Below are positions 1-43,969 of a stretch of DNA of 64,000 nucleotides, in pieces. A program made the position numbers and the translations under genes. The notes under the pieces are model-generated. The model was not told the origin of the DNA. It did no database searches and worked only from the letters and a program-made list of their open reading frames with translations. Within the stretch, counting starts at the first letter, position 1, and each line of letters begins with the position of its first letter. This stretch comes from Escherichia phage vB_EcoM_G37-3: the sequence record MK327941.1. One strand, 5' to 3'.

Positions 1-657
1 CTTCGCCAAATTTAACCATTGTCAGGCCGTAACGACTACTAAACAGACGTTTCAACTGTCCAACGATTTTAGAATCAGTGGTTATAATTTCCAATTCTTC
101 TACTTCACGAAAGAATTTTCTATCAGAATCAATAAACCAGCTAGTTCCTTTATGGTCTCTATCTTCGGTTGCGCTCATTAGAGTATGGTCTTTACCATCA
201 ATTTCAATTACATCAATTTGCCCACATGGACTAACATTTTTAACAGTAAAAGGTCTATAATTTATTGCTCGTGCAATAACATAATTAAGGTTAGATACGT
301 TTTCAGCATAATGGCAGAAGTCGGTCATAGCATTCGCATCTTTCCAAGTATAAGTTTTACCAACTTCCCATTTCTGGGGAACTTCTTCAACTTCACGAAA
401 GAATTTTCTATCGAATGGACTAAAGAAATATGTTGCAGTCCAAATGTCTTTTCCTGTAGCAGTTTTCGCCGTATGATAAACACCGTCTAGCTCTATTGCA
501 TTAATCCAACCGTTACCCTCGATCTCGATGATGGTAAATGGCTTGTCACCAATAGCTGCACTAATATCGCTGTTAAGTGGAGAAAGAACACCTTCTCCGT
601 TAGTAATAAACTCAGTTTTAGCGTTTTCATCTTTCCAGGTGTAAGTTTTACCAATTT
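1..657 (-). CDS. Partial ORF (C-terminus beyond window edge), KTYK/FFREV paralog family with two internal repeat units
   Basis: ATG at 655-657 on minus strand (MKWEIGKTYTWKD...), open to window edge; motifs KWE-GKTYTWKD and DRKFFREVEE each occur twice in the translation. Confidence 0.5.
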
Positions 658-679
658 CCCATTTCATAATATATTCCCC

Positions 680-1180
680 TTAACCGATTTTATCAAGTTC
701 GTTTAATGCTTTCTCTGCTTCCTGTATAGCTTGCACTCTTTCCGGCATTTTGTCAAGAAAATCTTTCAACTCTTCAAAACTGGAGATATGACGCAAGGCA
801 TTAGCACCGATAGCCGCATGTGATTTGCATTCAAAGCGGATTTTATAATTATCCATAGCCAATTTGAGAAGGTCTATTAGATCATATTCATGACCAGGCA
901 ATAAAACTTCTTTGAAGCACGCTCGGTCGCCATCGGAAAACCATATATTATCACCAACATCGATAGAACTAATATAATCCCCTTCGTGATTATAGATTGA
1001 ACGTACATTACCCCAACGGTCTACCGTAGCGACAGTAAATGGTTTATCTAGATATGTAAACACACCATCAATATTAGGTTTTTGTTCGTAACGCCAACAA
1101 TCACGCAAAATGCGCTTTTCGTCCTCACCAACCAACTTATATGTCTTCCCTTCTTCCCATTTCATAATATCATCTCTCAT
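680..1180 (-). CDS. Hypothetical protein, KTYK/FFREV paralog family
   Basis: 166-aa ORF starting MKWEEGKTYKL; shares N-terminal and DR-x-FKEV motifs with neighbouring ORFs. Confidence 0.55.
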   Translation of the reverse strand: MRDDIMKWEEGKTYKLVGEDEKRILRDCWRYEQKPNIDGVFTYLDKPFTVATVDRWGNVRSIYNHEGDYISSIDVGDNIWFSDGDRACFKEVLLPGHEYDLIDLLKLAMDNYKIRFECKSHAAIGANALRHISSFEELKDFLDKMPERVQAIQEAEKALNELDKIG

Positions 1181-1704
1181 TTTTGATACGTGATTCTAAT
1201 TGGATCATACGGTCGCGCGTTTGCTTGTATTCTCGAATAGCACCGATCCGGCTAGGCATACCATCAAGCACGCTCTTAATCCCTTCTATGGTAGTGATTT
1301 TAGCAATGCTATTATGTAACCCCATCTTATCGATCAACTGAATGTCGTAGGCTTCCATAAGCAGACCCAGACGTTCTAAAGTTAGGTCTTCTTTTTTCTT
1401 CCGATTCTGGAATCTTAGGTTCAATAGTAACTTCGGTAAAGAAACGGCGCTCACCTGACCAAAACCACACACCGGAACAACCAATAGGGGATTCTTTTAG
1501 CGTCATAGAGTCGTAACCACTGCCGATAATAGTAATTTCTCTAACATCACCATCATCGTCAATGTCTTCTACCATAAAAGGGCGACCAGCCAACAAGTCA
1601 ACAATACATCTGTTAATAGACGACGAAAATTTAGTCAGTTCGGCTTTCGACGCTTCGCATTCAATCTTGTAAGTTTTACCAACTTCCCATTCCATAATAA
1701 TCAC
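1170..1704 (-). pseudogene. Frameshifted member of KTYK/FFREV paralog family (two overlapping ORFs 1327-1704 and 1170-1484)
   Basis: N-terminal part MEWEVGKTYKI in one frame, paralog-like C-terminal part (DGMPSRIGAIREYK) in another; frames switch at homopolymer run 1392-1397. Confidence 0.45.
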
Positions 1705-1705
1705 C

Positions 1706-2209
1706 TCAAATAATTTTCACTGGAATACTATTAACAATCTTGTATTGTACTTGATTGTCAGACCCCCGCCACGGCTTCTTCGTTGGCATATCTTTAATAT
1801 AACGACCATCGATGAACATGTCAACTGATTCTACAATTTTTCTTTGCTCATCATTCAATTGGTCAAGGGTATAACCGGACCATAGCCAAATATCTTTATT
1901 TGGCATCCATGATTTTACTTCATCGATGATCCGCTGTACACCCTTTAAATTGCGTTTATACAGTGGATCGCCACCTAAGAATGTTAGCCCCTGAATAAAA
2001 TCAGGTCTAAGCAGATCCAGAATCAATCCCATTGTATCATCGGTGAATGGTTCCCCGTTCTTAGGATTGAGTATGCTAGCATTAAAGCAACCATCACATG
2101 CGTGTGAACATCCGGTAACGTAAAGGGAGACTCTCACTCCCTCACCGTTAACCATATCACAATCTTTAATATCGGCATAGCGTAGTTTGCCGTATGTATC
2201 AGAACTCAT
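1706..2209 (-). CDS. nrdG: Anaerobic ribonucleotide reductase activating protein NrdG (radical SAM)
   Basis: Translation aligns closely with E. coli/T4 NrdG (VNGEGVRVSLYVTGCSHACDGCFN, GGDPL, IWLWSGY, WRGSDNQ); ATG at 2207-2209, track start 2215 is TTG. Confidence 0.9.
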   Translation of the reverse strand: MSSDTYGKLRYADIKDCDMVNGEGVRVSLYVTGCSHACDGCFNASILNPKNGEPFTDDTMGLILDLLRPDFIQGLTFLGGDPLYKRNLKGVQRIIDEVKSWMPNKDIWLWSGYTLDQLNDEQRKIVESVDMFIDGRYIKDMPTKKPWRGSDNQVQYKIVNSIPVKII

Positions 2210-21327: not shown

Positions 21328-21921
21328 TTAAACGTATTCAGCGACAACATTGTGTTTAAAATTACCACTTCTTTTTGGATTTGGATTTTTCAATCGACTA
21401 TGTATTAAATTTTTGTTATATCCGGTTGCTTTAGACGCTTCTCCAATACTTTGATAAACAACACCATCAACACGAATCGGACGAGACTTATTAAACAGTT
21501 TATTCAATCCGGTATCATATGCATGGTTTTGGTTTTCTTGTCTTGTTGCGATCTCAAGATTCCAAACACAATTACAAGATTTTACCCCACTTTTATGATT
21601 AATTTCAAGCCCTTCACAATCACCTATAAAGTGTTCAGCGACTAGTCTATGAATATAGCGATATTTCTTAGTTTCCCCGTCATGCAAGCATACATTATAA
21701 TAACCATCACCAGCGCGTTTAGGTCGGAGTAGTTTACCTTTAACACGTTTTATAGTAGGGAACTCACCAAATTGATTTCGCTGGATAAAAGGAATCTCTC
21801 GGTCAAGTGAACGGATTCGACCATAGTTAGATACTTGATAAAACCCCCCATAGCCCTTAATCTGCTTCCATATCTCGGGGATTTCAACACCATCAATAAC
21901 AACAAGTTTAAGTTCTTCCAT
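21328..21921 (-). CDS. HNH homing endonuclease (Mob-like)
   Basis: YQVSNYGRIRS (NUMOD4-like) and HRLVAEHFIGDCEGLEINHKSGVKSCNCVWNLE (HNH) motifs. Confidence 0.75.
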   Translation of the reverse strand: MEELKLVVIDGVEIPEIWKQIKGYGGFYQVSNYGRIRSLDREIPFIQRNQFGEFPTIKRVKGKLLRPKRAGDGYYNVCLHDGETKKYRYIHRLVAEHFIGDCEGLEINHKSGVKSCNCVWNLEIATRQENQNHAYDTGLNKLFNKSRPIRVDGVVYQSIGEASKATGYNKNLIHSRLKNPNPKRSGNFKHNVVAEYV

Positions 21922-21933
21922 ATATCACCTCAT

Positions 21934-21962
21934 AAAAATAAAGCCAACCCTTTCGGATTGGC
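21934..21962 (-). terminator. Rho-independent terminator downstream of GrcA-like gene
   Basis: Minus strand hairpin AGCCAATCC-GAAA-GGGTTGGCT followed by T-rich tract. Confidence 0.55.
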
Positions 21963-21969
21963 TTGTGTA

Positions 21970-22386
21970 TTACATAGATTCCGTAAAGGTACGGGTGATA
22001 ATATCAAGTTGCTGTTCGCGTGTCAAGGCATTGAAGCGGGTAGCATAACCACTGATTCGAATTGTAAGCTGCGGGTACTTTTCAGGATTTTCTAACGCAT
22101 CAAGAAGAGTCTCCCGACGCAGTACGTTCGCGTTTAGGTGCATTCCCCCTTCGATAATCGGTTTACCCGCATCGATTTCGCAAATTCGAAAATTGGTCTT
22201 ATGCAGCGCCAGCGAATCGACGTCTTCTGCGGTGATCACATGGTCTTCTGCGAAAGTTTTACTAACAATTACTTTAGCGCCGATCAGTGCTTTCGGTTCG
22301 GATACCAGAATCATAGGCGCGAAGTGTCCACCAATAATAGTACCTTTATGCTCACCTTTCATGATTTGAATTGCTTTAAATTCCAT
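21970..22386 (-). CDS. grcA: Autonomous glycyl radical cofactor GrcA/YfiD-like protein
   Basis: C-terminus [57 protein letters not shown] is near-identical in pattern to E. coli GrcA glycyl radical motif (RVSGY). Confidence 0.8.
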
Positions 22387-22521
22387 AATTCACCTCTTAT
22401 AGATCAGGACGTTCGTCATTAATTTTACCAACCAAAACACCATAGAGTTTATCAGGTTGGATTTTACGATTCTTTTTAATTGTAGCACGAAATCGACGAG
22501 CTACGCTATCTTTATTTTTCA

Positions 22522-23013
22522 TTAGTTGATACCTAAGCCAATGAAAATAGGTTGGTCTTCTACACTACCCCTTCCAACACTAAATCGATTCAATTCTAAA
22601 AACTGCAATACGCTGTCAGTAAATCCGCGCATGGTAGTATCTAGGATAAAAATTGTTTTGTCAAGACTACGACCTCGCCATGTGATCGGATTCAGGAAAG
22701 TTCGGATCGACGTACAATCTACATTTGAAATATTTACATTTTCACCGCGACCGCGATCTCGGATCGTTTTGGCATGTTCCCGCGTCGTTGAAACGATAAA
22801 GACACTATAGCCTTTTCTCGTATAATGGTCATATAACTTGATTGTAGCGTCTGTATGCCCTGTCTGACGTCCTAAATTGATTGAGACAATGGAATCTAGG
22901 TCATCAGCAAAATTGCGTCGCTTACGACGTTCTATGATGCCATTTACGGCAGATACACACGCAGCATAAATCAAATCTTTACTTTCTAATTCTAAATCAA
23001 TGTCAATATTCAT
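22522..23013 (-). CDS. Hypothetical protein (163 aa)
   Basis: ORF with ATG and RBS; no recognised domain. Confidence 0.45.
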   Translation of the reverse strand: MNIDIDLELESKDLIYAACVSAVNGIIERRKRRNFADDLDSIVSINLGRQTGHTDATIKLYDHYTRKGYSVFIVSTTREHAKTIRDRGRGENVNISNVDCTSIRTFLNPITWRGRSLDKTIFILDTTMRGFTDSVLQFLELNRFSVGRGSVEDQPIFIGLGIN

Positions 23014-23021
23014 GGTAAAGT

Positions 23022-23056
23022 CTCCAGTGAACGGGGAGAGATCCTTAGATTGTCTC
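23022..23056. other. Stable GC-rich stem-loop downstream of endolysin gene
   Basis: Inverted repeat AACGGGGAGA...TCTCCCCGTT. Confidence 0.4.
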
Positions 23057-23075
23057 CCCGTTGATGGTTAATATT

Positions 23076-23465
23076 TTATTTTGGATCTGGGTATTTGCTG
23101 TGTGGTAGCTGAAAATGAACACCGTCTTTAAACGATACCCAATCCCCACCCCATTCAACAGGAACACCCAATTCTCGACCAGCTTGTTTAAATGCATCCG
23201 CGATCATGCGGTAGTATTTCATGTTCCATGTATCCTTATCTTTCGGATACGCTACAACATCAACCGCGAAACCGTGAAGATGACGAGATTTCATAGTCTT
23301 AGATTTACCTTCCGCAACATATTTCTTTTGCGTTTCTAGACTACGCACACCTTCCGTAATACCAAAATCGACCAGAGTCAGTTCTAACGCACGATGAACG
23401 ACTTTTACCAGATCAGGATGTACACCAACAAGCCGATCTTTGCTTCTTTGAGATAATTTAAACAT
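23076..23465 (-). CDS. M15-family L-alanyl-D-glutamate peptidase (T5 Lys-type endolysin)
   Basis: Aligns with phage T5 endolysin: KVVHRALELT, SRHLHGFAVDV, DAFKQAGRELG, GGDW, DGVHFQL (zinc-binding H/D residues). Confidence 0.75.
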   Translation of the reverse strand: MFKLSQRSKDRLVGVHPDLVKVVHRALELTLVDFGITEGVRSLETQKKYVAEGKSKTMKSRHLHGFAVDVVAYPKDKDTWNMKYYRMIADAFKQAGRELGVPVEWGGDWVSFKDGVHFQLPHSKYPDPK

Positions 23466-23493
23466 TATTCACCCCCTTTGTGAGTGATAATAT

Positions 23494-23685
23494 TTAGATT
23501 CCGGCGATCCTGCATATAGTTCTTGTATTAGCACCAATCAGGATCGCATTAACGACAACCATTCCCCAATCAACCCACTGATTATTATAAATGCTAAACC
23601 CGTTTGCAAGACCAAATACAAGCATTCCGGTACACATACTCAGAGCAATAATCAACATCACGGTAAAACCAAATGCAAATCTCAT
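23494..23685 (-). CDS. Small membrane protein (2 TM)
   Basis: Hydrophobic 63-aa ORF immediately upstream of endolysin. Confidence 0.4.
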   Translation of the reverse strand: MRFAFGFTVMLIIALSMCTGMLVFGLANGFSIYNNQWVDWGMVVVNAILIGANTRTICRIAGI

Positions 23686-23686
23686 A

Positions 23687-23953
23687 TTATTTTCCTTTTC
23701 TCTGTTTACGTTTATAAAAGTAATACATTACCTCATCGCGTCCGGTGATCCAACATGCTAGGGCGGTAAACAGGTTTACAATTCCCAACACACCTACTGA
23801 CGCGGCGCTGTCAACAGACATAGGAACAGTAAAGGCCATAGCTAACATAGCAACGCCACAAATGACATTAAGCACCATTATAATAAGACCGAAGAAAACC
23901 ATTGTCAATCCTCCGACACAAGAAAACCAACAATCACGCCAGTGATAAGACAT
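23687..23953 (-). CDS. Small membrane protein with basic C-terminal tail (holin-like features)
   Basis: Multiple hydrophobic helices then YKRKQRKGK tail. Confidence 0.4.
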   Translation of the reverse strand: MSYHWRDCWFSCVGGLTMVFFGLIIMVLNVICGVAMLAMAFTVPMSVDSAASVGVLGIVNLFTALACWITGRDEVMYYFYKRKQRKGK

Positions 23954-24096
23954 GATGCACCGCTAATCAGACAACCCGCGCCCATAGTTTCCCACCAGAT
24001 CAGAGAAGCGACAATAACACAGAATCCCCATACTACCGCAATCACAACATAGGCAAGGGTCGCCCAAAACATATATTTGTTCATAATAAATCCCAT
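23905..24096 (-). CDS. Small membrane protein
   Basis: Hydrophobic 63-aa ORF; start may be internal. Confidence 0.35.
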   Translation of the reverse strand: MGFIMNKYMFWATLAYVVIAVVWGFCVIVASLIWWETMGAGCLISGASCLITGVIVGFLVSED

Positions 24097-24269
24097 TCAC
24101 CAAACAAATAAGAAAAAAGCCATATCAACAGAAACGAGGCAATTGATCCGGCAAGCAAAATGATATTAGAGAATCCGCCGTCTATCCAGGCGACAAAACA
24201 GAATACGCCAGTATAGAAGCATAAACCCATTACAAAGCATACTATAAGCAACCATAGACAAAACTCCAT
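24081..24269 (-). CDS. Small membrane protein
   Basis: Hydrophobic 62-aa ORF with RBS GGAGGG. Confidence 0.35.
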   Translation of the reverse strand: MEFCLWLLIVCFVMGLCFYTGVFCFVAWIDGGFSNIILLAGSIASFLLIWLFSYLFGEWDLL

Positions 24270-24330
24270 AGAAAGCCCTCCAGCGAGATAAATTAGTGCG
24301 GGTAGTGGAATGTACTACCCGCTTTGTTAA

Positions 24331-24489
24331 TCAACGCAGAGCTTCTTCTAGCGCGATCCCAAACCATCCACAAACAACGCCCATACAGACAGCTACAAGA
24401 AGATTCATTCTCTCTTTAGGGATCATTGCAATCATAACAACAACCATACAGAAAGCCATTACCATTGAAGTTAACATTTGTTCAACCAT
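24331..24489 (-). CDS. Small membrane protein (about 52 aa) missed by ORF track
   Basis: ATG 24487-24489 with RBS AAGGTG; MVEQMLTSMVMAFCMVVVMIAMIPKE... Confidence 0.3.
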   Translation of the reverse strand: MVEQMLTSMVMAFCMVVVMIAMIPKERMNLLVAVCMGVVCGWFGIALEEALR

Positions 24490-24491
24490 TA

Positions 24492-24830
24492 TCACACCTT
24501 TAAAGTCATAGACGCATAAACATTAATGCCAGGCCAGTTAGGATCGCAATTATACTCAACATCCCACAAATAAAGCGGTTTAGATGTATCAGCCAAGTTT
24601 TTAAAATCTTCTACCCACATTTCAAGGCTATATGATGGATAAACTAGGCTATCATATCCGCCGTAACGTTGGCCTACTGGTCGGTCAGTAAAAACTACCT
24701 CAAGATCCGGTAATTCTTTTTCAAGGATAACCGCCAGCGCATAAATCAGACGGTCTTCCTTGTTACGCTGCCGAAGGACCGTTGTCAATTGGTTTTTCTG
24801 GTTCACTAGCAAGCACCTACACATTTTCAC
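24492..24830 (-). CDS. Hypothetical protein (112 aa)
   Basis: ORF in gene chain. Confidence 0.45.
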   Translation of the reverse strand: MKMCRCLLVNQKNQLTTVLRQRNKEDRLIYALAVILEKELPDLEVVFTDRPVGQRYGGYDSLVYPSYSLEMWVEDFKNLADTSKPLYLWDVEYNCDPNWPGINVYASMTLKV

Positions 24831-25083
24831 AGAATGAAATTTTCACAGACACAATTTTACCATAAGTGAAGAATGAATATACATTATCGAGATATTCAAC
24901 GTCACCTACAATCACATCAAACTGCGGATCAGCCACTGCCGCAACATATTCTACCAGTTCATCAAGAGAATGCAACTTAATTTCATCAATTCGGCTGTAT
25001 TTGGTTGCATCTTTGATTTTAAAACCACGTTCTTTCAGCTTATCAATCAGAATTTCACGCGGAGTTTCAAACAGTTTGCTCAT
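24817..25083 (-). CDS. Hypothetical protein (88 aa)
   Basis: ATG with RBS GAGGAT. Confidence 0.45.
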   Translation of the reverse strand: MSKLFETPREILIDKLKERGFKIKDATKYSRIDEIKLHSLDELVEYVAAVADPQFDVIVGDVEYLDNVYSFFTYGKIVSVKISFCENV

Positions 25084-25104
25084 AATATAATCCTCACATT
25101 AAAT

Positions 25105-25302
25105 CTAAAATTTGTTAACGACGAATTGCATAATTAGACTAATCACAAACATTGCAAACCAAGTATAAATGCAACAGATAAAAGCTACATACAATTCAAT
25201 CTGGTCAGAGAATACACCGGGTAAAAGCATTAGCAAAATAACAACAGTAAAGACGCTAGCGATACCCGCAACAAAACCAATATCATTTTTACTAATCGTC
25301 AT
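25105..25302 (-). CDS. Small membrane protein
   Basis: Hydrophobic ORF; ATG just inside TTG track start. Confidence 0.4.
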   Translation of the reverse strand: MTISKNDIGFVAGIASVFTVVILLMLLPGVFSDQIELYVAFICCIYTWFAMFVISLIMQFVVNKF

Positions 25303-25303
25303 C

Positions 25304-25447
25304 AAGTCACCGTTTTGTAAAGAAACACAATAAAATCCAAGACAAGAAAGACAGTGTAAATGATCATCGTCAAGACAGTAAACACTGTCAAATTTTCATC
25401 GTTAGTTAATTCATAGTCGCCCATCCATACAATCACAAGATATAGCA
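25304..25447 (-). CDS. Small membrane protein (about 48 aa), coordinates approximate
   Basis: MLYLVIVWMGDYELTNDENLTVFTVLTMIIYTVFLVLDFIVFLYKTVT; stop overlaps next start (TGATG). Confidence 0.25.
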
Positions 25448-25502
25448 TTGAAAGAATGGAAGCACCTACGAAGTTAAAAAAAACATATTCTTGAGCGTCA
25501 TA

Positions 25503-25685
25503 TTAACAACCATCGCGGCTTAAGTCAACAGCAATTGCATACAGCATAATGAATATGCTAGCAGATCCGAGAATCAATGCACCATCACATTTTGAAACTC
25601 GCTCATCAAAATGTAACATTATCCATCCGAGGATGTTAAAGGCGCAGACCGCGCCTATGTTCGCTAACCAATTAATCTTTTTCAT
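25503..25685 (-). CDS. Small membrane protein
   Basis: Hydrophobic 60-aa ORF. Confidence 0.4.
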   Translation of the reverse strand: MKKINWLANIGAVCAFNILGWIMLHFDERVSKCDGALILGSASIFIMLYAIAVDLSRDGC

Positions 25686-25693
25686 AATATACC

Positions 25694-26020
25694 TTAGAAA
25701 GAAACAGTTTTCAAGAAATCCAGATTTTTAGTACCGAAAACAGAAAAGTAGTGTTTTCCTTTTTCGGTTTTAGAGAAAGCGATTGTCTTCTCTACATGGT
25801 GACGGAAGCCAGACAGACGATCACCCAGGTCAAGGCGGCAAGCGTAAGTAGTGCCGTTTTCGAAAGTAACCTCGATTTGAGTTTTGTCATATTCGCTTTC
25901 ATAGGCTTTTGCTGCCGCGTCCTGTGCTTTACGCTCGAAGTCTTCGAAGTGGAATACTTCGTTTGCGTTAGCGAATACAGAAGATTCAGAGAAGATAACT
26001 TTAACAGATACTGGTTTCAT
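25694..26020 (-). CDS. Hypothetical protein (108 aa)
   Basis: ATG with RBS AAGGAGTATCAA and PeSL-type promoter. Confidence 0.5.
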   Translation of the reverse strand: MKPVSVKVIFSESSVFANANEVFHFEDFERKAQDAAAKAYESEYDKTQIEVTFENGTTYACRLDLGDRLSGFRHHVEKTIAFSKTEKGKHYFSVFGTKNLDFLKTVSF

Positions 26021-26052
26021 TTTGATACTCCTTAGTAGTTCGTGTTTCGTTT

Positions 26053-26081
26053 CGATGGGTGTATTATGCTATACACCCTCT
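26053..26081 (-). promoter_or_regulatory. Early sigma70-type promoter (PeSL-like cassette)
   Basis: Minus strand TTGACA, 17-nt spacer, CATAAT, conserved leader ACCCATCGAAACGAAACACGAAC. Confidence 0.5.
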
Positions 26082-26099
26082 CGCGTGTCAACAACTTTT

Positions 26100-26288
26100 T
26101 TAGTCTTTTTTCATAATTTCTAGAGCAGTTTCTACAGCACCTTTCCAACCTTCCCACATAATGGACATAGTAAGGAAGTTAAAGCACCCGCAGGAATCAA
26201 CCTTTTTAGAGATAAACCATTCTACAAACGCTTCGCTCATACCATGCTCTTTAGCGGATTCGCGTAATTGTTCAATTTGGTCTTCCAT
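26100..26288 (-). CDS. Hypothetical protein (62 aa)
   Basis: ORF in gene chain. Confidence 0.45.
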   Translation of the reverse strand: MEDQIEQLRESAKEHGMSEAFVEWFISKKVDSCGCFNFLTMSIMWEGWKGAVETALEIMKKD

Positions 26289-26310
26289 AGTATCACCTCA
26301 ACACTTAACG

Positions 26311-26505
26311 TTATTCAAACTCAAACGGTCTATTCAACCTATTGTAAAAGTACATATAACAAGCAAAATTATGCTTTGGCTGTACCGTATCAGATAGACA
26401 CGCTTTTACAGCCTCGCGGTCCGATGGGTCTACACCCTCAGCTTTAAGTAATGCTAAAATCTGGTTATAGCGTACTCTTAGTTGTACTAATGGTTTATCC
26501 CCCAT
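26311..26505 (-). CDS. Hypothetical protein (64 aa)
   Basis: ORF in gene chain. Confidence 0.4.
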   Translation of the reverse strand: MGDKPLVQLRVRYNQILALLKAEGVDPSDREAVKACLSDTVQPKHNFACYMYFYNRLNRPFEFE

Positions 26506-26514
26506 ATTACCCCC

Positions 26515-26742
26515 TTATAGTTGATCAGCAATGTATGCGGTGCATTTGCGGAGTTTAGCCATAGCACCACCTTTCATGTCGCTTGCGCCTACAATGTTCA
26601 TGATCTCTAAGCGATCAGCCGGATTCAGTCTAGTAGCCAAGATCTGGTTAGCCAGTTCCATTTTACCCATCTGCGGTTCCATCTCAAACATTTCACGCTC
26701 AAAGTCGATAATTTCTTTTGCTGCGTCTTTAAAGTTAATCAT
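26515..26742 (-). CDS. Hypothetical protein (75 aa)
   Basis: ATG with RBS GGAGGACCAAA and PeSL-type promoter. Confidence 0.45.
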   Translation of the reverse strand: MINFKDAAKEIIDFEREMFEMEPQMGKMELANQILATRLNPADRLEIMNIVGASDMKGGAMAKLRKCTAYIADQL

Positions 26743-26771
26743 TTTGGTCCTCCCGTTTCGTTGATGGTTGT

Positions 26772-26800
26772 ATTGTAGGGGAGTTATCCTCCCCTGTCAA
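26772..26800 (-). promoter_or_regulatory. Early promoter with spacer palindrome (PeSL-like)
   Basis: Minus strand TTGACA, spacer GGGGAGGATAACTCCCC, TACAAT. Confidence 0.6.
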
Positions 26801-26808
26801 CACTTTTA

Positions 26809-26994
26809 TCAGAAATATGCAATATAGTTTGCCAGTCCTACAGAGTCATCATTCGGCATTGCTTTTACCGCCAGTTCAAACCCTGCTTCAACTTTCTGTT
26901 TAGCGGATTCTTCGTTATAACCCCAGATGACCAGAATAGCTACTACGTTTTCTTTGCTTACTGCTTTCAGTGCTTTAGTGATGCGACGTGCCAT
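26809..26994 (-). CDS. Hypothetical protein (61 aa)
   Basis: ATG with RBS GGAGAATCAAATT and PeSL-type promoter. Confidence 0.45.
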   Translation of the reverse strand: MARRITKALKAVSKENVVAILVIWGYNEESAKQKVEAGFELAVKAMPNDDSVGLANYIAYF

Positions 26995-27040
26995 AATTTG
27001 ATTCTCCGTTTAAGAAAGTGTGTTTCGTTTCGATGGGTGT

Positions 27041-27069
27041 ATTATGCTATAGGCGTGATCTGGTGTCAA
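27041..27069 (-). promoter_or_regulatory. Early sigma70-type promoter (PeSL-like cassette)
   Basis: Minus strand TTGACA, 17-nt spacer, CATAAT, conserved leader. Confidence 0.5.
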
Positions 27070-27094
27070 CAACTTTTTTAAAAAATTTTAGGCA

Positions 27095-27125
27095 ATAAAA
27101 AAGCCACTCCGAAGAGTGGCTTATA
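27095..27125 (-). terminator. Rho-independent terminator
   Basis: Minus strand hairpin GCCACTC-TTCG-GAGTGGC followed by TTTTTT. Confidence 0.6.
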
Positions 27126-27271
27126 GGGAAGGTAGCGAATCTTCCTTATCTCCAACCTGCTAGCGGCCTAGCAAGTGAATGCTTTAGCGTACCGGATCAC
27201 CCCCATACGCTGTAATAAATGCGGCTAGGTGACGTCCAAATCATTCTAACCGCGCTGTCTTTAGTTCACTA

Positions 27272-27490
27272 TTATTTATATCGCTTTCTCTCGCGACGTT
27301 TTTGATCTTCTTCCTTGATAGAGTTAAACGCATCAAAAAGACACATGACACTAATAATAAACATAACCGTATTTTCTACGATATCCCACGGCTTCGCATC
27401 GGTACAGATTCCCCAAACTGTAAGAAATGCAAATAGTGCAGAAGAGATCACAAGCATGATACTTGCTAAGATATAAAAAGTCATTTTCAT
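27272..27490 (-). CDS. Small membrane protein
   Basis: Hydrophobic ORF with basic C-terminus KEEDQKRRERKRYK. Confidence 0.4.
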   Translation of the reverse strand: MKMTFYILASIMLVISSALFAFLTVWGICTDAKPWDIVENTVMFIISVMCLFDAFNSIKEEDQKRRERKRYK

Positions 27491-27681
27491 GGTTTTACCT
27501 CAATTCTTCGATATTCATCACACATCCACGCAGTAAGCAAGAATCCCAACACATAAGCAACAAAATACGTTAATGCTTCTTCTGGTTTCGTGCTATGTAT
27601 CATCAGTAAACCAGCGAGAACGGTCTTAACAATTGCATTTAAAATAATTAACCACGCAAATAATTTCATCGTTTGCCCCAT
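27487..27681 (-). CDS. Small membrane protein
   Basis: Hydrophobic 64-aa ORF. Confidence 0.4.
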   Translation of the reverse strand: MGQTMKLFAWLIILNAIVKTVLAGLLMIHSTKPEEALTYFVAYVLGFLLTAWMCDEYRRIEVKP

Positions 27682-27905
27682 TTCGGTCGAGTCTTTTCAA
27701 ACTTATACATTCCGTAACAATCTCGAATCATCCACGTAACAAGAGCACCAGTCAACACAGACAATACACAGAAGAAGTAAAACGGTCCGGTTGCATTATC
27801 AACATGAGCAAGCCAGGTAAAGAAAACACATGCAAGGAATGTAAAGAACATCATAAAACACAAGAAAGCAAAATATTTTATGCTACTCATAGCGCCACCA
27901 TACAA
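27666..27905 (-). CDS. Small membrane protein
   Basis: Hydrophobic 79-aa ORF. Confidence 0.4.
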   Translation of the reverse strand: MYGGAMSSIKYFAFLCFMMFFTFLACVFFTWLAHVDNATGPFYFFCVLSVLTGALVTWMIRDCYGMYKFEKTRPKWGKR

Positions 27906-27993
27906 CAGATCATAAGAAAACCCAACGCAATAAGAATTGCATCAAATTTAGTGAACTCAGATCCACCTATCAACATCATTCGTTCCTGTTCAT

Positions 27994-28236
27994 TCATAGA
28001 TCACAGAGCCATCTTAAAGCACCACATAAAGCGATCAAAAGACTAGGTATAAACGAGACTAAAACAAGACTACAAAAATCATCTAAGGTAACGCCGGAAT
28101 AGCTACCTACTGTAACAACACCGATCATCAGACACAGAAAGAAAACAAATGCAATCAGAAACAAAGTATTGCTAAACAGTTTAGTGATCATTAGACACCC
28201 CACGACGATCAATTTCAAAAACTTTTTTACCATCAA
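27994..28236 (-). CDS. Small membrane protein
   Basis: Hydrophobic 80-aa ORF. Confidence 0.4.
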   Translation of the reverse strand: MMVKKFLKLIVVGCLMITKLFSNTLFLIAFVFFLCLMIGVVTVGSYSGVTLDDFCSLVLVSFIPSLLIALCGALRWLCDL

Positions 28237-28384
28237 CGAAGCATGTCACAACTGCCTCGTTGACTTCCGCAAATTGTTGTGTTACCCACTTAAGGTCAGA
28301 GCGAAACAATGTTCTATTAATAACAAATGTTTTACCTTTCTTATCCATACCCATAAATTTTGCTTTAACCATATCCAATTCCAT
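28181..28384 (-). CDS. Hypothetical protein (67 aa), overlaps downstream ORF in another frame
   Basis: ORF with ATG; 56-nt overlap with 27994-28236. Confidence 0.35.
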   Translation of the reverse strand: MELDMVKAKFMGMDKKGKTFVINRTLFRSDLKWVTQQFAEVNEAVVTCFVDGKKVFEIDRRGVSNDH

Positions 28385-28552
28385 ATTATCACCTTATTTG
28401 CTAATCGCTAAACCCAATCCGAAGAGAGCACCCGATGCTACAGTATACCCGAAAGTTTCAAAGGAAGTAAAGATATCTAAGCCGCCAGCTAACAGAGTTG
28501 CTGTAAACAGAGTACCAGCTACGAACATAAAAGTTTTACCGATAAATTTCAT
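28385..28552 (-). CDS. Small membrane protein (about 55 aa) missed by ORF track
   Basis: ATG 28550-28552 with RBS AAGGAGAATCAAA and PeSL-type promoter; MKFIGKTFMFVAGTLFTATLLAGG... Confidence 0.35.
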
Positions 28553-28583
28553 TTTGATTCTCCTTTCGTTTGTTTGTGGGGGT

Positions 28584-28612
28584 ATCTTACTACCCCCGTT
28601 TCATGTTGTCAA
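28584..28612 (-). promoter_or_regulatory. Early promoter with palindrome around -10 (PeSL-like)
   Basis: Minus strand TTGACA, 17-nt spacer, TAAGAT within GGGGGTAG...ACCCCC inverted repeat. Confidence 0.55.
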
Positions 28613-28618
28613 CTATTT

Positions 28619-28991
28619 TTAAGAATATTTTACTTCGTCTACAATATCTTTCATGACATTGATTTCCATTCCGGTCAGAACACGTTGGAACATGTGCTGC
28701 ACATACGCTTTCAGGTATTCATTTGATGGCTTGCTATCGAAAGTCTTTTTAGTGTAGTAGTCATCACCGAAAGCTACTGTAATTACATTTTCGTCGTCGT
28801 TCCAAGCGATATAAGCAAATTTGCCGTTATCCCAGAAGCGAGCACTAATTGCTACTTTTGTTGAATCGAATCCTACTTCGCTGTGAGATTCAAGAACTAC
28901 TTGCGTGCCAGTTTCTTTATGAATGTAGTAGCGGGATACTAAGTCAAAGTTACGGGTGTAGTGACATTCAAATTTATCTTTAAACATCATC
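28619..28991 (-). CDS. Hypothetical protein (about 124 aa)
   Basis: Probable ATG at MMMFKDKFECHY with RBS AGGAGAATCAAA; track start 29062 lies in promoter. Confidence 0.45.
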
Positions 28992-29030
28992 ATTTTGATT
29001 CTCCTAAGTGTGTTTCGTTTCGATATGTGC

Positions 29031-29059
29031 ATTATGCTATAGTCGTTTATGGTTGTCAA
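29031..29059 (-). promoter_or_regulatory. Early sigma70-type promoter (PeSL-like cassette)
   Basis: Minus strand TTGACA, 17-nt spacer, CATAAT, conserved leader. Confidence 0.5.
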
Positions 29060-29062
29060 CAC

Positions 29063-29100
29063 CTAAAAACAAAAAACCCCGAAAATTTTTCGGGGTATAA
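29063..29100 (-). terminator. Rho-independent terminator downstream of 57B
   Basis: Minus strand hairpin CCCCGAAAAATTTTCGGGG followed by TTTTTTG. Confidence 0.6.
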
Positions 29101-29102
29101 AA

Positions 29103-29573
29103 TTACAGTTTGGTCGTCCACTCCAGGTCTAGATCTTCGACATACTCATGAGATCGGACAATCTCTAAATCGAACTCTAGGTCAGTGCCAAATTTACGCG
29201 CACCAACATCATAAGAAAGCGTGATATGCGGTACATATTCAGGATAATCCCACGTCGCACCTAAAGCAGTGCCGATATCGTGTCTGAATTGCATGTAGTC
29301 GCTTTCAAATGCCAACACAAGTGCATTAGTACCGGATTGAGTTTCAAACACTTTCAGATGACACAGAGAGCCTAAGAACTTCTCCCCTTCTTCTGGGATA
29401 AACGGAACATAGACACGAGAATATAAGATAGTGCTATGCAGTTTATCACGAGGAACGGCATTAGGCAGATCGTAGAACTCCTGCAATTTTTCAATGCGGT
29501 CTAGTGTATCCTCAGTGAATTTAACCGCCGCATATGTACCTTTAACGGATTCTCTAAACGGGGTCATAATCAA
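29103..29573 (-). CDS. 57B: 2H-phosphoesterase-fold protein, T4 57B/Acb1-like (anti-CBASS cyclic-nucleotide phosphodiesterase)
   Basis: Two H-x-T motifs (LHSTILYS, PHITLSY) typical of 2H phosphoesterases; position next to 57A and gene 1 as in T4. Confidence 0.65.
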   Translation of the reverse strand: MIMTPFRESVKGTYAAVKFTEDTLDRIEKLQEFYDLPNAVPRDKLHSTILYSRVYVPFIPEEGEKFLGSLCHLKVFETQSGTNALVLAFESDYMQFRHDIGTALGATWDYPEYVPHITLSYDVGARKFGTDLEFDLEIVRSHEYVEDLDLEWTTKL

Positions 29574-29836
29574 GCCTCCGTGATCAGTTCTACTTCCTCT
29601 TCTGCGTCTTCCGCTGCTTCGTCTTTAGGGAGAAGTGCTTTCACTTCTTCGACAATAGCATCAAGGGAAACAGTCCCGTTTTCGTCTGGCTGAATACCCA
29701 GAATGCGTACCAGTTCCATCAATACACGCTCACGATCTTTCAGTTGGCCTTCTAAGAATGCGGCCTTTTCTTGAGTGTCAAACAGACGTACTTTCAGGAC
29801 ATTAATCATTTGTTCATGCTGATTGGACATATTCAC
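29570..29836 (-). CDS. 57A: Tail fibre assembly chaperone gp57A-like
   Basis: Small acidic coiled-coil protein, syntenic with T4 57A. Confidence 0.6.
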   Translation of the reverse strand: MNMSNQHEQMINVLKVRLFDTQEKAAFLEGQLKDRERVLMELVRILGIQPDENGTVSLDAIVEEVKALLPKDEAAEDAEEEVELITEA

Positions 29837-29862
29837 ATCTCCTACTTGTTGATAACTTTTTA

Positions 29863-30519
29863 TTAAATGTTCGCGAGAATCGCGCTTTCAAATTCTTCTA
29901 ATGTACCATTATTTATGATAATGGTTTCACCGTCAATAGGCAAAATTCCTTTTTCGGTGGAGTGAGTCGATACAATACCAGTATCACGATGAATATGCAA
30001 CACCTTAGCACCCATAGCACGCATGAGAGCAATTTCAATAGGCTGACGCACATCAACCACTACAAAATACCCTTCTTCATTTTTGCGCTTCATAAACTCA
30101 TTCACGAAGAGATTACACCAATAAAGCGGATTGATCAAGTTAACCATTATATCAGTACCGAGAGTGGTTAACATGAGACGAATAGACCAGACGTTATTAT
30201 GTTTTTCGCCGATCTCATTAACGACCTTGTAAATCTCAGCCAGACGATCACAAGTAAAGGAACTACCGCCATACTTCGAATCTAGCATAAGCAGACACTG
30301 AATAAACCACTTATGCGCGGTATAGGTATCAATACCTAGATCGGCTTCTCTGTCACGCCCCAACCCGTCAAAGTCAAGATAAGTCAGACCTAAGTCTGGT
30401 TGACATTCGCACAATATTTCTTTGATCGGTGCTGCCAGTTGATAACTATGTCCATCAATGATTAACGCGGCAGTGTCTTTTCCTACTCGCTTTTTACCAC
30501 AAAGTGCAATCAATTTCAT
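29863..30519 (-). CDS. 1: Deoxynucleoside monophosphate kinase (gene 1)
   Basis: MKLIALCGKKRVGKDT P-loop and overall collinearity with T4 gp1. Confidence 0.85.
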   Translation of the reverse strand: MKLIALCGKKRVGKDTAALIIDGHSYQLAAPIKEILCECQPDLGLTYLDFDGLGRDREADLGIDTYTAHKWFIQCLLMLDSKYGGSSFTCDRLAEIYKVVNEIGEKHNNVWSIRLMLTTLGTDIMVNLINPLYWCNLFVNEFMKRKNEEGYFVVVDVRQPIEIALMRAMGAKVLHIHRDTGIVSTHSTEKGILPIDGETIIINNGTLEEFESAILANI

Positions 30520-30534
30520 TATATAAGCCTCTTA

Positions 30535-31125
30535 TTACTTTCTAAAAGCAGGGTGCATAGCTTTAATACCTTCCACCCTCTGACGATCCGCCGCCTGAAT
30601 TGCTGGGCGAGGAACGATCAGTTGACCATCACGTTCAATGCTCATTGTTTTAAAGGGAAGAATTGCAGTACACACCAGAGATTCATGCATATCATCGGTG
30701 TATGTTAACTCAAGTTCCCCCAATTGTGAACACCAACAACCATAAAAGTTAAAAGTGCACACAATGTTACGTCGTTCGTTGTCCATCATGTGAACTTGAA
30801 CGGCTTCCGGCATTGAATCCTTCCACGCAGTGGAGTTACCGTTATTGTAGTCTACTATAGAAAGCATCCATGTGTAAAGGTTTAGATAGCTTTCCAAATG
30901 CTCATCGACAATAAACCGGACTACCAACGGGTCAAACTCCACATGACTAGACGGATAATCAGCGACCGCCAAACCATATTGTCCAGCAACTTGCTTAGTC
31001 GGTGGAATGGTTATAGCCGGAAGTGTAACACCTTGAGCATTTAAAGTAAAGCCTTTTGTTAGTTGTCCATCTGGAATATTGATCTGCCAGTTGCTGGGGT
31101 TAGCATAGTTAAAGAGATTAGACAT
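30535..31125 (-). CDS. 3: Tail completion / sheath stabiliser protein gp3 (by synteny)
   Basis: ORF between gene 1 and gene 2 homologs; assignment mainly positional. Confidence 0.55.
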   Translation of the reverse strand: MSNLFNYANPSNWQINIPDGQLTKGFTLNAQGVTLPAITIPPTKQVAGQYGLAVADYPSSHVEFDPLVVRFIVDEHLESYLNLYTWMLSIVDYNNGNSTAWKDSMPEAVQVHMMDNERRNIVCTFNFYGCWCSQLGELELTYTDDMHESLVCTAILPFKTMSIERDGQLIVPRPAIQAADRQRVEGIKAMHPAFRK

Positions 31126-31315
31126 TACTGATTCCTCAAATGAAAATATTTATTAACAATTGTCGCTTTGCGACGTGCCGGAGGCATTGACTACTTTTTA
31201 ACCGAAACAAATTTTCTATTATTCTAAAGATCTTTCTTCGTTTTGGTTATGTTTTAACCAATAACTATATTTTTATACAGTAATAAATAAAACGGGTACT
31301 ATACGAGGACTTCTT

Positions 31316-31570
31316 ATGACAGAAGACATTTTGTTAAAACTCTATGATCGTCTGGATAACGAATTAGCAACATTGCGGGGTGAAGTTCTCTATTTGTCTA
31401 AATGCAATACAGATCTGCTTAAGCAGATTGCAGAAAGGGATGATCAAATAAAATCCCTTTCAGGTGCATTACGTGATCGCGACAAGGCATTAGAGATTTT
31501 ACAGCGTGTTACCAATAAGGAAGAATTAAAAGACTTCTTACATGGTTATGCTCATGCTATCGATCTATAA
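31316..31570 (+). CDS. Hypothetical coiled-coil protein (84 aa), plus-strand gene inside minus-strand block
   Basis: ATG with RBS GAGGA; ends at bidirectional hairpin. Confidence 0.4.
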   Translation: MTEDILLKLYDRLDNELATLRGEVLYLSKCNTDLLKQIAERDDQIKSLSGALRDRDKALEILQRVTNKEELKDFLHGYAHAIDL

Positions 31571-31574
31571 TAAA

Positions 31575-31600
31575 AAAGCCCGTCATTGACGGGCTTAATC
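31575..31600. terminator. Bidirectional hairpin terminator
   Basis: AGCCCGTCA-TTGACGGGCT hairpin; T-run on minus strand side. Confidence 0.5.
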
Positions 31601-32743
31601 TTAACTATTGATCATATCAATGACGTTTTGTAGCTCTGATATGGATAGCGTTTCTGTATATCCATCGGGCATATCTTCTTTACTAACATAGAAACCTTTA
31701 TACTTTTTCTTTATTGCACATTCCATAGAAAGAGCATCATCACCGTTATCGTATTTTTTATAAAATGTCAACTCATGACGAAATATAGATTTTGAAGATT
31801 GGTTTTGTATTCTTTTTATTAATCTGTTGTTGGTTATACCAAATTTTATAGCAACCGCAACATCTTCTTTGTATAAAGTTTGTACATAAATGTATGCAGG
31901 TTTATTCCTCTTAAATCCATGATTGCTACACATAGGGCAACCGCTATTTTTTGATACGTAGTCTCCTAAGTTTGGCGTAAATTCATGTCCGCTACTACAA
32001 CGCATTACCAATTTTGTTTTTAGCATTCCTCTATACTCACCGCCAACAAAATCAACAAATGTATCACCTTTATCAATCGCCTTATCTGTTATTTCCTTTA
32101 CTACTTGCTCAGTTGACTTCTTGTTTTTACCTGAACATAGTTTACATCTAGATCCATTAACTAAAAACGAGTGACCGGATGCAGTATATTCATGTCCATT
32201 AGGGCATTTAACTAAGATATTTCTTTCATAAAAATCTTTATAATCAGACACATAGTCAATGACTTCGTGGTCTTTTTGGTTATTCCTCATCTCTGTTAGC
32301 AACTCTTCGCTATTCCAGCGTTTACCCTTAACGCAGAGACAACCATGACCTTGATAAAGATATATAAATTTCTTAGTAAAGTTTTTGTTGCAATCAGGAC
32401 AATGCATTAGTAATTCTGTCATTTGACCTGTATATCCTTTAGGAATATCGATCAATGTGTATTTTCCGCATATTGTCTTTAATGCATCATCTATTCTTTC
32501 TTTGGTCCAGCGTAAGCGACCAGTGCATTCATGACATTTTACACCCAGTCTAAGAGTATCTAAACTAAATATAGTTGACGTATGTCCTTTATCACATTTT
32601 AACTTAAATCTAGTATCCTTTGCGTTGGTGTATTCTCCGACTAGACCATACCATTCATAACCACATGGGATATGTTCTTTTACCTTCTCTAGATATACAC
32701 CGAACGGTCTAGGAACTGAATTAGGTTTTCTTTCTTTAGTCAT
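31601..32743 (-). CDS. Multi zinc-ribbon protein with C-terminal GIY-YIG-like (T5orf172-type) domain; putative homing-endonuclease-like selfish gene
   Basis: At least six C-x2-C ... GH pairs; C-terminal AYIYVQ...IKFGITNN...GYTETLSIS resembles the T5orf172 motif pattern; inserted between gene 3 and gene 2. Confidence 0.55.
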   Translation of the reverse strand: MTKERKPNSVPRPFGVYLEKVKEHIPCGYEWYGLVGEYTNAKDTRFKLKCDKGHTSTIFSLDTLRLGVKCHECTGRLRWTKERIDDALKTICGKYTLIDIPKGYTGQMTELLMHCPDCNKNFTKKFIYLYQGHGCLCVKGKRWNSEELLTEMRNNQKDHEVIDYVSDYKDFYERNILVKCPNGHEYTASGHSFLVNGSRCKLCSGKNKKSTEQVVKEITDKAIDKGDTFVDFVGGEYRGMLKTKLVMRCSSGHEFTPNLGDYVSKNSGCPMCSNHGFKRNKPAYIYVQTLYKEDVAVAIKFGITNNRLIKRIQNQSSKSIFRHELTFYKKYDNGDDALSMECAIKKKYKGFYVSKEDMPDGYTETLSISELQNVIDMINS

Positions 32744-32761
32744 ATTTTTATATCCTGTAAA

Positions 32762-32785
32762 TTAAAGCGCCGTCACCAGCGGCGC
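32762..32785. other. Hairpin between gene 2 and inserted gene
   Basis: Inverted repeat AGCGCCG-TCACCAG-CGGCGCT. Confidence 0.4.
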
Positions 32786-32799
32786 TATTTTTATAATCA

Positions 32800-33621
32800 T
32801 TAAAACAATTTCCACACCTTACGAGCATCATATTTCTTGTCTTTGCTCATAAACTGGTAGGTCGGAAGATACACAACCGTGCTCCAATCTTTTGGTGCGA
32901 TCTCAATCAGTTTTGTTTGGATGTGTCCAGGCAAATATGCTTTGATCATGTGGTCTGCGCCTCTCATACCTTTAACATCACTCCATTTAATTTTTAAACG
33001 AGTTTTATTACTAAGAGTAGGTGTACTCGCGTATTGTCGCAACAACGCTTCTAAGAACTGCTGGCGAGCTTTAGGTGGCGCATAGTGCAAGTTCAAACCT
33101 AGCATAATCTCGTTTCCCGCTTTAGATGTACCAAATCCTAGACAGATAATCAAGGGGTATCGGTCAAAGAATGGCAAAGAATCCCGATATTTTGGGTTAT
33201 ACGCATAAGTATAGATCCGTCCCACTTGTGGTTTTACTACCTGATGACCTTTTACACCATCCTTGATGGTCTTCATAAACCACTCCTGTGATTTTTCTTT
33301 AGGACGACTCTTTGATACAGCACGCATAGACGCACGAAAATCATTAATCATCATCATTGCGCGTTGCTGCTTATTGAGACCCTTTGCGCCTTTCCCTTTT
33401 AGTTTTTCAACTTCTATTGCTGTTTTAATTTCGCTGGCATAACGAGACATACTTTTAGTGAAAGTCGCATAGGCTATTCCCTTAGAATCTGCAAATGCTT
33501 TAGCTGTCATTCCTTTGGCTTTTGCTTTCGCAAATTCTACACCCAATTCGACCCACTGTTTAGACTTTCGTTTTTTGGGAGACGGCTTTTCGTCTTCTGT
33601 GATTATTTCAAATACGCTCAT
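32800..33621 (-). CDS. 2: DNA end protector protein gp2
   Basis: 273-aa basic protein, syntenic with T4 gp2 (between genes 3 and 4). Confidence 0.7.
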   Translation of the reverse strand: MSVFEIITEDEKPSPKKRKSKQWVELGVEFAKAKAKGMTAKAFADSKGIAYATFTKSMSRYASEIKTAIEVEKLKGKGAKGLNKQQRAMMMINDFRASMRAVSKSRPKEKSQEWFMKTIKDGVKGHQVVKPQVGRIYTYAYNPKYRDSLPFFDRYPLIICLGFGTSKAGNEIMLGLNLHYAPPKARQQFLEALLRQYASTPTLSNKTRLKIKWSDVKGMRGADHMIKAYLPGHIQTKLIEIAPKDWSTVVYLPTYQFMSKDKKYDARKVWKLF

Positions 33622-33632
33622 AATATTATCCT

Positions 33633-34106
33633 CTATTTGTTAAGCCCTTTAAAGCCAAACACTTTCTTTAATGCATGTTCGGTGATGATCTTAAACTCCA
33701 TGTTATGCTTTTGGCATAATTTCACGGCAGCTAACCATTTTTCAGTATTTTTTGTGTATGTCCATACTTCATGCATATATCGTTGCTTTGTCTTCGCGGT
33801 CATTCTTTTTGGCTTTTCCGGTGGCCTTGTCTCTTTAGCTGGTTTAACTTCCCATAAATGCTCCTTGCCATCATCAAACTTAACGTAAAAATCCATAAAG
33901 TATCTGTGTCTTTTCCCGTCTGTTGATGACTCATAAGGAATTACTACGGTCTCAGATCCCCATTTTGAAACTCTAGGATTGCGGTCTAGCCACTGCATGA
34001 TCCATCTTTCCCAGCTTGAACGGTATGTGATCTTACGTATATCCCCTTTATACTTTTCCTTATTCTCAGGAACATACTTGCCCTTATAAGTGTTAGATCC
34101 TCCCAT
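33633..34106 (-). CDS. 4: Head completion protein gp4
   Basis: Aligns with T4 gp4 (GKYVP, YRSSWERW, VVIPY, DGKRHRYFMDFY, FKIITEH). Confidence 0.8.
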   Translation of the reverse strand: MGGSNTYKGKYVPENKEKYKGDIRKITYRSSWERWIMQWLDRNPRVSKWGSETVVIPYESSTDGKRHRYFMDFYVKFDDGKEHLWEVKPAKETRPPEKPKRMTAKTKQRYMHEVWTYTKNTEKWLAAVKLCQKHNMEFKIITEHALKKVFGFKGLNK

Positions 34107-34110
34107 TTTA

Positions 34111-34157
34111 GCACCCTTTATTATAAATACATAATACTATTTATCAATTGAGGGTGC
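34111..34157 (+). promoter_or_regulatory. T4-type late promoter TATAAATA (34122-34129) flanked by inverted repeat, upstream of gene 53
   Basis: Exact TATAAATA; arms TAGCACCCT / AGGGTGCTA. Confidence 0.6.
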
Positions 34158-34161
34158 TAAA

Positions 34162-34716
34162 ATGCTCTTTTCTTTCTTCCCTGCCATTGAATACAACGGC
34201 AAGATGATTACTGACATTGTGCGCAATTACCGCGCCTATTTCAACGCAATAATTTCTGATTATAACATACAAACATATTACATTCAAGGTAGTCCACGAC
34301 CGGAACAAGTTGCATATGAAGTATACGGAAACCAACAACTTTATTGGATCTTGCTGATGCTTAATGACGTATACGATCCGTTCCATGACTGGATCACCGA
34401 TCAAGAGACAGCATATGAATCAGCCGAACAGCGATATGCAAATGTAGGAGGAAATCAAGTATTATACCACGTTGATATTGACGGAAACAAGTATTGGAAT
34501 CTTACCGAATATCCGAAAGGATCAAGCAATTGGTATGATAAAGGGGATATTCATCATCGTCATTTGCAGTTTCAAGGTGCACTATCGGCAGTAGACACAC
34601 TGGAAGATGCGATCCTCCGTAATGAGGAACGACGCAAGATCAAGATCATAGATCCTACACAAATTAAACAATTTATTAACGCATTCATTCGAGAAATGGA
34701 AAAGGCTGATGTGTAA
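34162..34716 (+). CDS. 53: Baseplate wedge protein gp53
   Basis: Aligns with T4 gp53 (YYIQGSPRPE, QLYWILLMLND, WYDKGD, GALSAVDT). Confidence 0.8.
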   Translation: MLFSFFPAIEYNGKMITDIVRNYRAYFNAIISDYNIQTYYIQGSPRPEQVAYEVYGNQQLYWILLMLNDVYDPFHDWITDQETAYESAEQRYANVGGNQVLYHVDIDGNKYWNLTEYPKGSSNWYDKGDIHHRHLQFQGALSAVDTLEDAILRNEERRKIKIIDPTQIKQFINAFIREMEKADV

Positions 34717-34727
34717 GGTGATTAATT

Positions 34728-36527: not shown

Positions 36528-36535
36528 GGTAACTA

Positions 36536-37105: not shown

Positions 37106-37106
37106 T

Positions 37107-37646: not shown

Positions 37647-37661
37647 GGATGGGGGTGTTTA

Positions 37662-43925: not shown

Positions 43926-43941
43926 GTGTATGATTTAAAAA

Positions 43942-43966
43942 GCCAATTCTAGAGAGTTGGCTTTTT
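43942..43966 (+). terminator. Rho-independent terminator after gene 8
   Basis: Hairpin AGCCAA-TTCTAGAGAG-TTGGCT followed by TTTTT. Confidence 0.6.
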
Positions 43967-43969
43967 CTA

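Follow-up and report, generated by a model that had tools for sequence, protein, structure and literature searches.

A record-specific frameshift splits the RB49 ORF051 homologue in the deposited genome of Escherichia phage vB_EcoM_G37-3

In the deposited genome of Escherichia phage vB_EcoM_G37-3 (MK327941), two overlapping reading frames on the minus strand carry what look like the two ends of a single protein and meet at a run of six A on the coding strand. What is the significance of such an arrangement: does it represent a site at which ribosomes or RNA polymerase are programmed to slip from one frame into the other, the remains of a decaying duplicate, or simply a sequencing error? These three options had been put forward in a sequence-only reading of the 64,000-nucleotide stretch in which the locus lies, hereafter the window. 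The analysis described below indicates that the break is a record-specific frameshift and not a programmed slippage site or recoding signal, and that its most probable origin is an error in the MK327941 consensus or, failing that, a recently arisen null mutation of an accessory gene.

One gene in two frames

The upstream reading frame, 1327-1704(-), encodes the N-terminus MEWEVGKTYKI; its true start codon is the ATG at 1695, which is preceded by the Shine-Dalgarno sequence GAGGTG, the GTG at 1704 being only the mechanical start of the open reading frame. Terminated by a stop codon at 1327-1329, it specifies a 122-aa product composed of the N-terminal domain plus 21 out-of-frame residues, which is identical to QBO64650.1 (G37_3_00053) and whose sole known occurrence is vB_EcoM_G37-3. 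The second frame, 1170-1484(-), is +1 relative to the upstream one, remains open from 1484 to its stop codon at 1170-1172 (translation ...EDLTLERLGLLMEAYDIQLIDK...DGMPSRIGAIREYK...RIKNER) and contributes, as the 3' piece, the C-terminal helical domain (EDLTLERLGLL...RIKNER). In a PHROGs profile search the two pieces matched adjoining parts of the single 165-position profile phrog_5347 (Table 1), a result far beyond chance that makes them the two parts of a single gene; the 175-aa protein, repaired or orthologous, matches positions 1-165 of the same profile (E=2e-66), a full-length match that comprises an N-terminal mixed alpha/beta domain and a C-terminal helical domain. The two ORFs are thus the N- and C-terminal halves of an RB49 ORF051 homologue, and the broken gene is a member of the phrog_5347 / RB49 ORF051-ORF050 family. 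The sequence-only reading, according to which the family N- and C-termini meet at the A6/T6 run, is borne out by these matches. Its proposal that either A7 or A5 would restore a single frame holds for A5 only; A8 would rejoin the frames as well, and A7 would not.

Table 1. Features of the broken gene and its neighbours in the window, and frame-breaking indels of the same gene in other public sequences
Sequence	Feature	Position	Strand	Match or remark
Window	5' piece of ORF051 homologue	1327-1695	-	phrog_5347 positions 1-98, E=1.3e-42; QBO64650.1 exact match
Window	3' piece of ORF051 homologue	1170-1391	-, +1 frame	phrog_5347 positions 97-165, E=6e-19
Window	Lesion GAAGAAAAAAGAAGAC	1386-1401	-	A6 on coding strand = T6 at 1392-1397
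Window	nrdG (anaerobic ribonucleotide reductase activase)	1706-2209	-	directly upstream of broken gene, same orientation
Window	RB49 ORF050 homologue, intact tandem paralogue, 161 aa	680-1165	-	phrog_5347 member
ECD7	ORF051-family gene (L002)	1106-1597		-1 in GGG
SRR24962600	ORF051-family gene (L012)	1278-1803		-2 in GTGTG
ERZ28659585	ORF051-family gene (L013)	289-603		-1 in CCCC (C4)

The neighbourhood is that expected of this gene. Its place directly downstream of nrdG and in tandem with the ORF050 paralogue is common to G5211, ECD7, Phi1, GEC-3S, RB49 and KMB43 as well as to metagenome contigs, and with nrdG directly upstream the locus is identified as the krischvirus block nrdG-ORF051-ORF050-ORF049. 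The gene that is cut by the start of the window (1-668, minus strand; 274 aa, RB49p049 type) carries two tandem copies of the MKWEVGKTY N-terminal domain followed by a different helical C-terminus, such that a domain of this type is present in three consecutive genes.

As to function, phrog_5347 comprises accessory proteins of T4-like phages and belongs to the PHROGs families of unknown function, and the broken gene itself sits among small genes of unknown function beside nrdG. The ORF051-homologue protein had no match in Pfam or in a profile search of PDB sequences, and its AlphaFold2 model (mean pLDDT 67) gave no significant fold match in the PDB (best E=0.12); the many fold matches in BFVD are all uncharacterised proteins of T4-like phages. 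The family is narrow: a search of 1.84 billion proteins yielded just 6 representative clusters at E<=1e-3.

A deletion in the linker that relatives do not share

The region shares 96-99% identity with RB49-like coliphages (genus Krischvirus), and in G5211, Phi1, GEC-3S and RB49 the orthologue (RB49p051) is a single 528-nt ORF of 175 aa. When the DNA of the window is aligned with that of G5211, Phi1, GEC-3S and ECD7, exactly 2 nt are missing from it at the site, the 175-aa allele of the relatives reading GAAGAAAAAGAAGAAGAC in place of GAAGAAAAAAGAAGAC. The relatives have GAAGAA AAA GAA GAA GAC here (E-E-K-E-E-D, with AAG in Phi1), that is, A5 or AAAAG followed by GAAGAAGAC, and hence the A6 run is not ancestral; in the window, the zero frame continues past the lesion as GAA AAA AGA AGA CCU. 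A natural 174-aa allele, GAAGAAAAAGAAGAC, occurs in metagenome contigs, and formally the window sequence is derived either from the 175-aa allele by loss of GA or from the 174-aa allele by gain of one A. The remaining substitutions place the window gene nearest to that of G5211, itself a carrier of the 175-aa allele.

How exceptional is this state among related sequences? A tblastn search with the repaired protein matched 56 records, 50 of which contain an uninterrupted full-length ORF051-type ORF (85.7-98.9% identity) and four a divergent but likewise uninterrupted 162-aa allele in the same slot; the only broken ones are two records of ECD7, which owe their condition to a different lesion, a 1-nt deletion in a GGG run. 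All 34 phage records matched by a 71-nt probe have 73 nt, not 71, at the site. Exact-pattern scans of IMG/VR, JGI metagenomes and GTDB genomes did not find the window allele, nor was it found among INPHARED phages; because it occurs in none of the collections searched, the lesion has no independent confirmation. The comparison with orthologs that had been recommended thus shows a lesion unique to the window record, with relatives that read a single frame. Separately, this 528-nt gene has lost its frame independently, through indels at three further simple repeats, in public sequences from ECD7 and from two metagenome assemblies (Table 1); these indels could be repeated knock-outs of a dispensable gene or errors at error-prone repeats.

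The lesion falls in the acidic inter-domain linker that joins the N-terminal domain of ~90 aa to the helical C-terminal domain of ~70 aa and that is, in the protein alignment, the sole length-variable part of the family (natural lengths 162 and 174-182 aa, with alleles of 174, 175, 176, 181 and 182 aa). The AlphaFold2 model is confident at residues 1-92 and drops to a pLDDT <50 at residues 94-105, where the lesion sits. The corresponding DNA is GAA-rich and triplet-repeat-like, and its length varies in frame in nature.

Outside the linker, the gene has been well kept. Pairwise dN/dS (omega) among orthologues is 0.02-0.23, the one exception being the G5211/ERZ27251044 pair, whose value of 0.42 stems from only 13 substitutions; the window lineage has accumulated four synonymous changes and one conservative change (L-to-I), and its downstream frame is untouched, with zero decay past the single indel. 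The ORF051 homologue is therefore under purifying selection, and since this constraint was in place until the lesion arose, the lesion must be very recent if it is genuine at all. The idea of a decaying duplicate survives these data only in part. The gene is indeed a paralogue, old and conserved, of its sole counterpart in the window (31% identity to the repaired gene); on the other side, it is intact in all compared relatives but ECD7 and shows no decay beyond the indel. The description was consequently rejected, as the two paralogues are so far apart in sequence and both are conserved across the genus.

Recoding signal, mutation or error

Programmed recoding at this locus would take the form of either a +1 ribosomal shift at A_AAA_AGA or slippage of RNA polymerase on A6 to A5 or A8, and its outcome would be a full-length protein alongside one limited to the N-domain. 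The local sequence is inviting in that tRNA-Lys can re-pair perfectly one base downstream in GAA AAA AGA AGA, the two codons that follow AAA are the rare Arg codon AGA, and a +1 shift would generate ...EEKEDLTLERL..., which is identical to the natural 174-aa allele. Programmed recoding sites are conserved, however, and this one is confined to a single record, all 54 phage records other than those of ECD7 being uninterrupted, without the two-frame arrangement and its shift heptamer, and the metagenome contigs examined likewise reading a single frame. Moreover, it is the lesion itself that creates both the A6 run and AGA_AGA, neither of which is present in the ancestral sequence. The shift needed is +1 or -2 and not the -1 that is typical of A-run sites, reading by eye revealed no SD-like or AGGAGG-like stimulator just upstream, and the downstream 111 nt contain no stand-out RNA structure (z=-0.94; 36 of 200 shuffles were as good). 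Slippage of RNA polymerase usually needs 7-9 or more A/T and A6 lies below the limit for the E. coli enzyme, being shorter than the runs on which it slips appreciably; even this A6 exists in the window only, with A5 or AAAAG in the relatives. Runs of this length are unremarkable: the window has 25 A6 and 16 T6, and 55 long ORFs together contain 27 runs of A>=6 on their coding strand. Nor is AGA a particularly rare codon for the phage (7.65 per 1000 codons), and the window has two other in-frame AGA_AGA pairs and eight AAA_AGA pairs. Taken together, these observations leave programmed ribosomal or transcriptional slippage scarcely credible at this site.

The same conclusion emerges when the locus is set beside known systems. 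It bears some resemblance to the +1 frameshift of prfB (RF2) and to transcriptional slippage in dnaX and IS elements, in all of which frames for the N- and C-terminal parts overlap with a homopolymer at the junction. Nevertheless, the prfB site is conserved across species and stimulated by an upstream SD and an in-frame stop, none of which is found here, and the slippage sites of dnaX and IS elements are conserved and contain A7-A9 or more, in contrast to the A6 and the single-frame relatives seen here. A closer parallel is the adventitious +1 frameshifting at paired rare Arg codons (AGA_AGA or AGG_AGG) in E. coli (PMC5009743), with which the site has in common a slippery P-site codon, two AGA codons and the need for a +1 shift, but from which it differs, as a merely putative shift site, in that its motif is unconserved and AGA is moderately used by the phage. 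At best, then, one would be dealing with leaky 'compensatory' frameshifting as opposed to a programmed signal.

If the break is not a signal, is it at least real? What bears on this most directly is the remainder of the window, which was aligned in its entirety to G5211 with every indel listed. With three exceptions, the indels fall between genes, have lengths divisible by three, or form pairs that compensate each other in divergent segments, and across the 64 kb only two are window-unique, uncompensated and frame-breaking in conserved CDSs, both of them 2-nt deletions. One is the lesion at 1393; the other lies at about 39590 in the baseplate wedge gene gp6 (37952-39854, plus strand), where CACTATTCC has become CACTTCC, and divides that gene into a 549-aa ORF (37952-39601) and an out-of-frame remainder (39549-39854). 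In 53 of 53 relatives the two bases are present and gp6 is a protein of 634 aa, the truncated 549-aa version having been deposited as QBO64735.1 of G37-3. Gene 6 is essential in T4, and the C-terminal part of gp6 builds the baseplate ring. A plaque-forming isolate is thus very unlikely to carry the gp6 lesion, which is probably a consensus error in MK327941, and its implausibility in a viable phage implies that the record contains errors of precisely the 2-nt-deletion type.

Two other differences in run length were considered as window-specific errors and rejected. In dmd (28198), a C4/C5 (coding G4/G5) difference falls 7 nt before the stop codon; G5211, JSE and PTE-Eco09 have one base more, and the last Dmd residues and the stop differ there, the window state being that of most relatives. 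The A8 run (25476-25483, plus strand; T8 on the coding minus strand) lies within the homologue of G5211_00112 / phi1p111, ~30 nt from the annotated start, and the length of the run ranges from 5 to 8 among relatives. The corresponding window ORF, 25302-25448(-), has 48 aa versus 69 aa annotated in G5211, and this small membrane-protein gene either has a misannotated start in the relatives or a variable 5' end. The alignment also revealed an uneven similarity to G5211, with identities of 99.64% over 1-21331, 91% over 21927-23091, 97.4% over 23122-31603, 99.06% over 32810-51105 and 99.992% over 51006-64000, and with unaligned gaps at 21331-21927 and 31603-32810; such a mosaic suggests recent recombination among co-circulating krischviruses.

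The genome in question, from a phage isolated from pig manure, has 167,832 bp, 283 CDS, no tRNA genes and a coverage of 456x, and G5211 comes from the same study (Korf et al. 2019, PMC6563267). The genomes of that study were sequenced by PacBio RSII (HGAP3) or MiSeq (SPAdes), the platform being unspecified for individual phages, and annotated with Prokka (PMC6563267). On balance, we lean towards the view that the break was introduced into the deposited vB_EcoM_G37-3 sequence by faulty consensus calling or assembly, mainly because the same record carries the second unique 2-nt deletion in a gene that is essential in T4; of the three options raised at the outset, sequencing error is accordingly the most likely one, given a record-specific 2-nt loss here and another in gp6. 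In that case, the ORF051 homologue would be broken solely in the record, by the loss of GA from a GAA-rich acidic linker stretch or, in an equivalent view, by the lengthening of the 174-aa allele's A5 run by one A, and the phage would probably make a normal full-length ORF051-type protein. Adjacent ORFs in different frames are also what CDS-splitting artefacts or null alleles look like in other deposited phage genomes (e.g. in the same gene of ECD7), and the likeness extends to the position of the break at a simple repeat, its restriction to one record and the otherwise perfect conservation of both halves. Unlike those splits, this one involves 2 nt instead of the usual 1 nt and a triplet-repeat-like linker with natural in-frame length variation. 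Not everything speaks for an artefact, since consensus indels should be rare at 456x coverage, a homopolymer error of the classic kind does not take the form of a 2-nt deletion, and the linker really is prone to indels.

It is for these reasons that a genuine, very recent loss-of-function mutation in a dispensable accessory gene, though it commands less of our confidence, deserves serious attention. It could have arisen in the GAA-rich linker, through slipped replication or a deletion between microhomologies, and would leave the 122-aa N-domain fragment, perhaps with some full-length protein owing to adventitious +1 slippage at AAA_AGA_AGA. That indel variation in the family is confined to the linker, and that the same short gene has suffered three further independent frame-breaking indels elsewhere, makes a real mutation quite plausible, and the high coverage of the record, together with the setting of the gene in a narrow family and among small neighbours without assigned function, points the same way. 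Against it stand the purifying selection (omega about 0.1), which argues that the gene matters, the intact downstream frame, the absence of the allele from every other sample, the possibility that the frameshifts in other assemblies are themselves errors, and above all the similar 2-nt deletion in gp6, which has very little chance of being genuine.

Should the lesion be real, it may be slightly leaky via AAA_AGA_AGA, by analogy with E. coli, in an adventitious and not a programmed manner. AGA is rare in E. coli, and krischviruses bring no tRNA genes of their own. Shifting at tandem AGA_AGA has been documented in this host, with an efficiency that depends on the expression level (Atkins et al. 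2016, PMC5009743). One could go further and propose that a real deletion has by chance made an efficient +1 site, on which tRNA-Lys slips at A_AAA_A while the ribosome stalls for want of the scarce tRNA-Arg(UCU) at two successive AGA codons. This we regard as a long shot; were it true, the phage would produce, besides the N-domain-only fragment, a low level of protein identical to the 174-aa allele, and the locus would offer an example of 'compensatory' frameshifting that rescues a fresh indel.

Meaning for the record and for the gene

The main value of these findings lies in curation. MK327941 annotates the N-terminal fragment as a 122-aa CDS in its own right, the C-terminal fragment being probably QBO64649.1, going by accession numbering, and gp6 is truncated in the same record. 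If, on the other hand, the lesion were real, it would mean that the gene of the RB49 ORF051 family is dispensable for laboratory growth, and leaky +1 frameshifting at AAA_AGA_AGA could then be studied in a naturally occurring example, while a phage devoid of tRNA genes infects its host.
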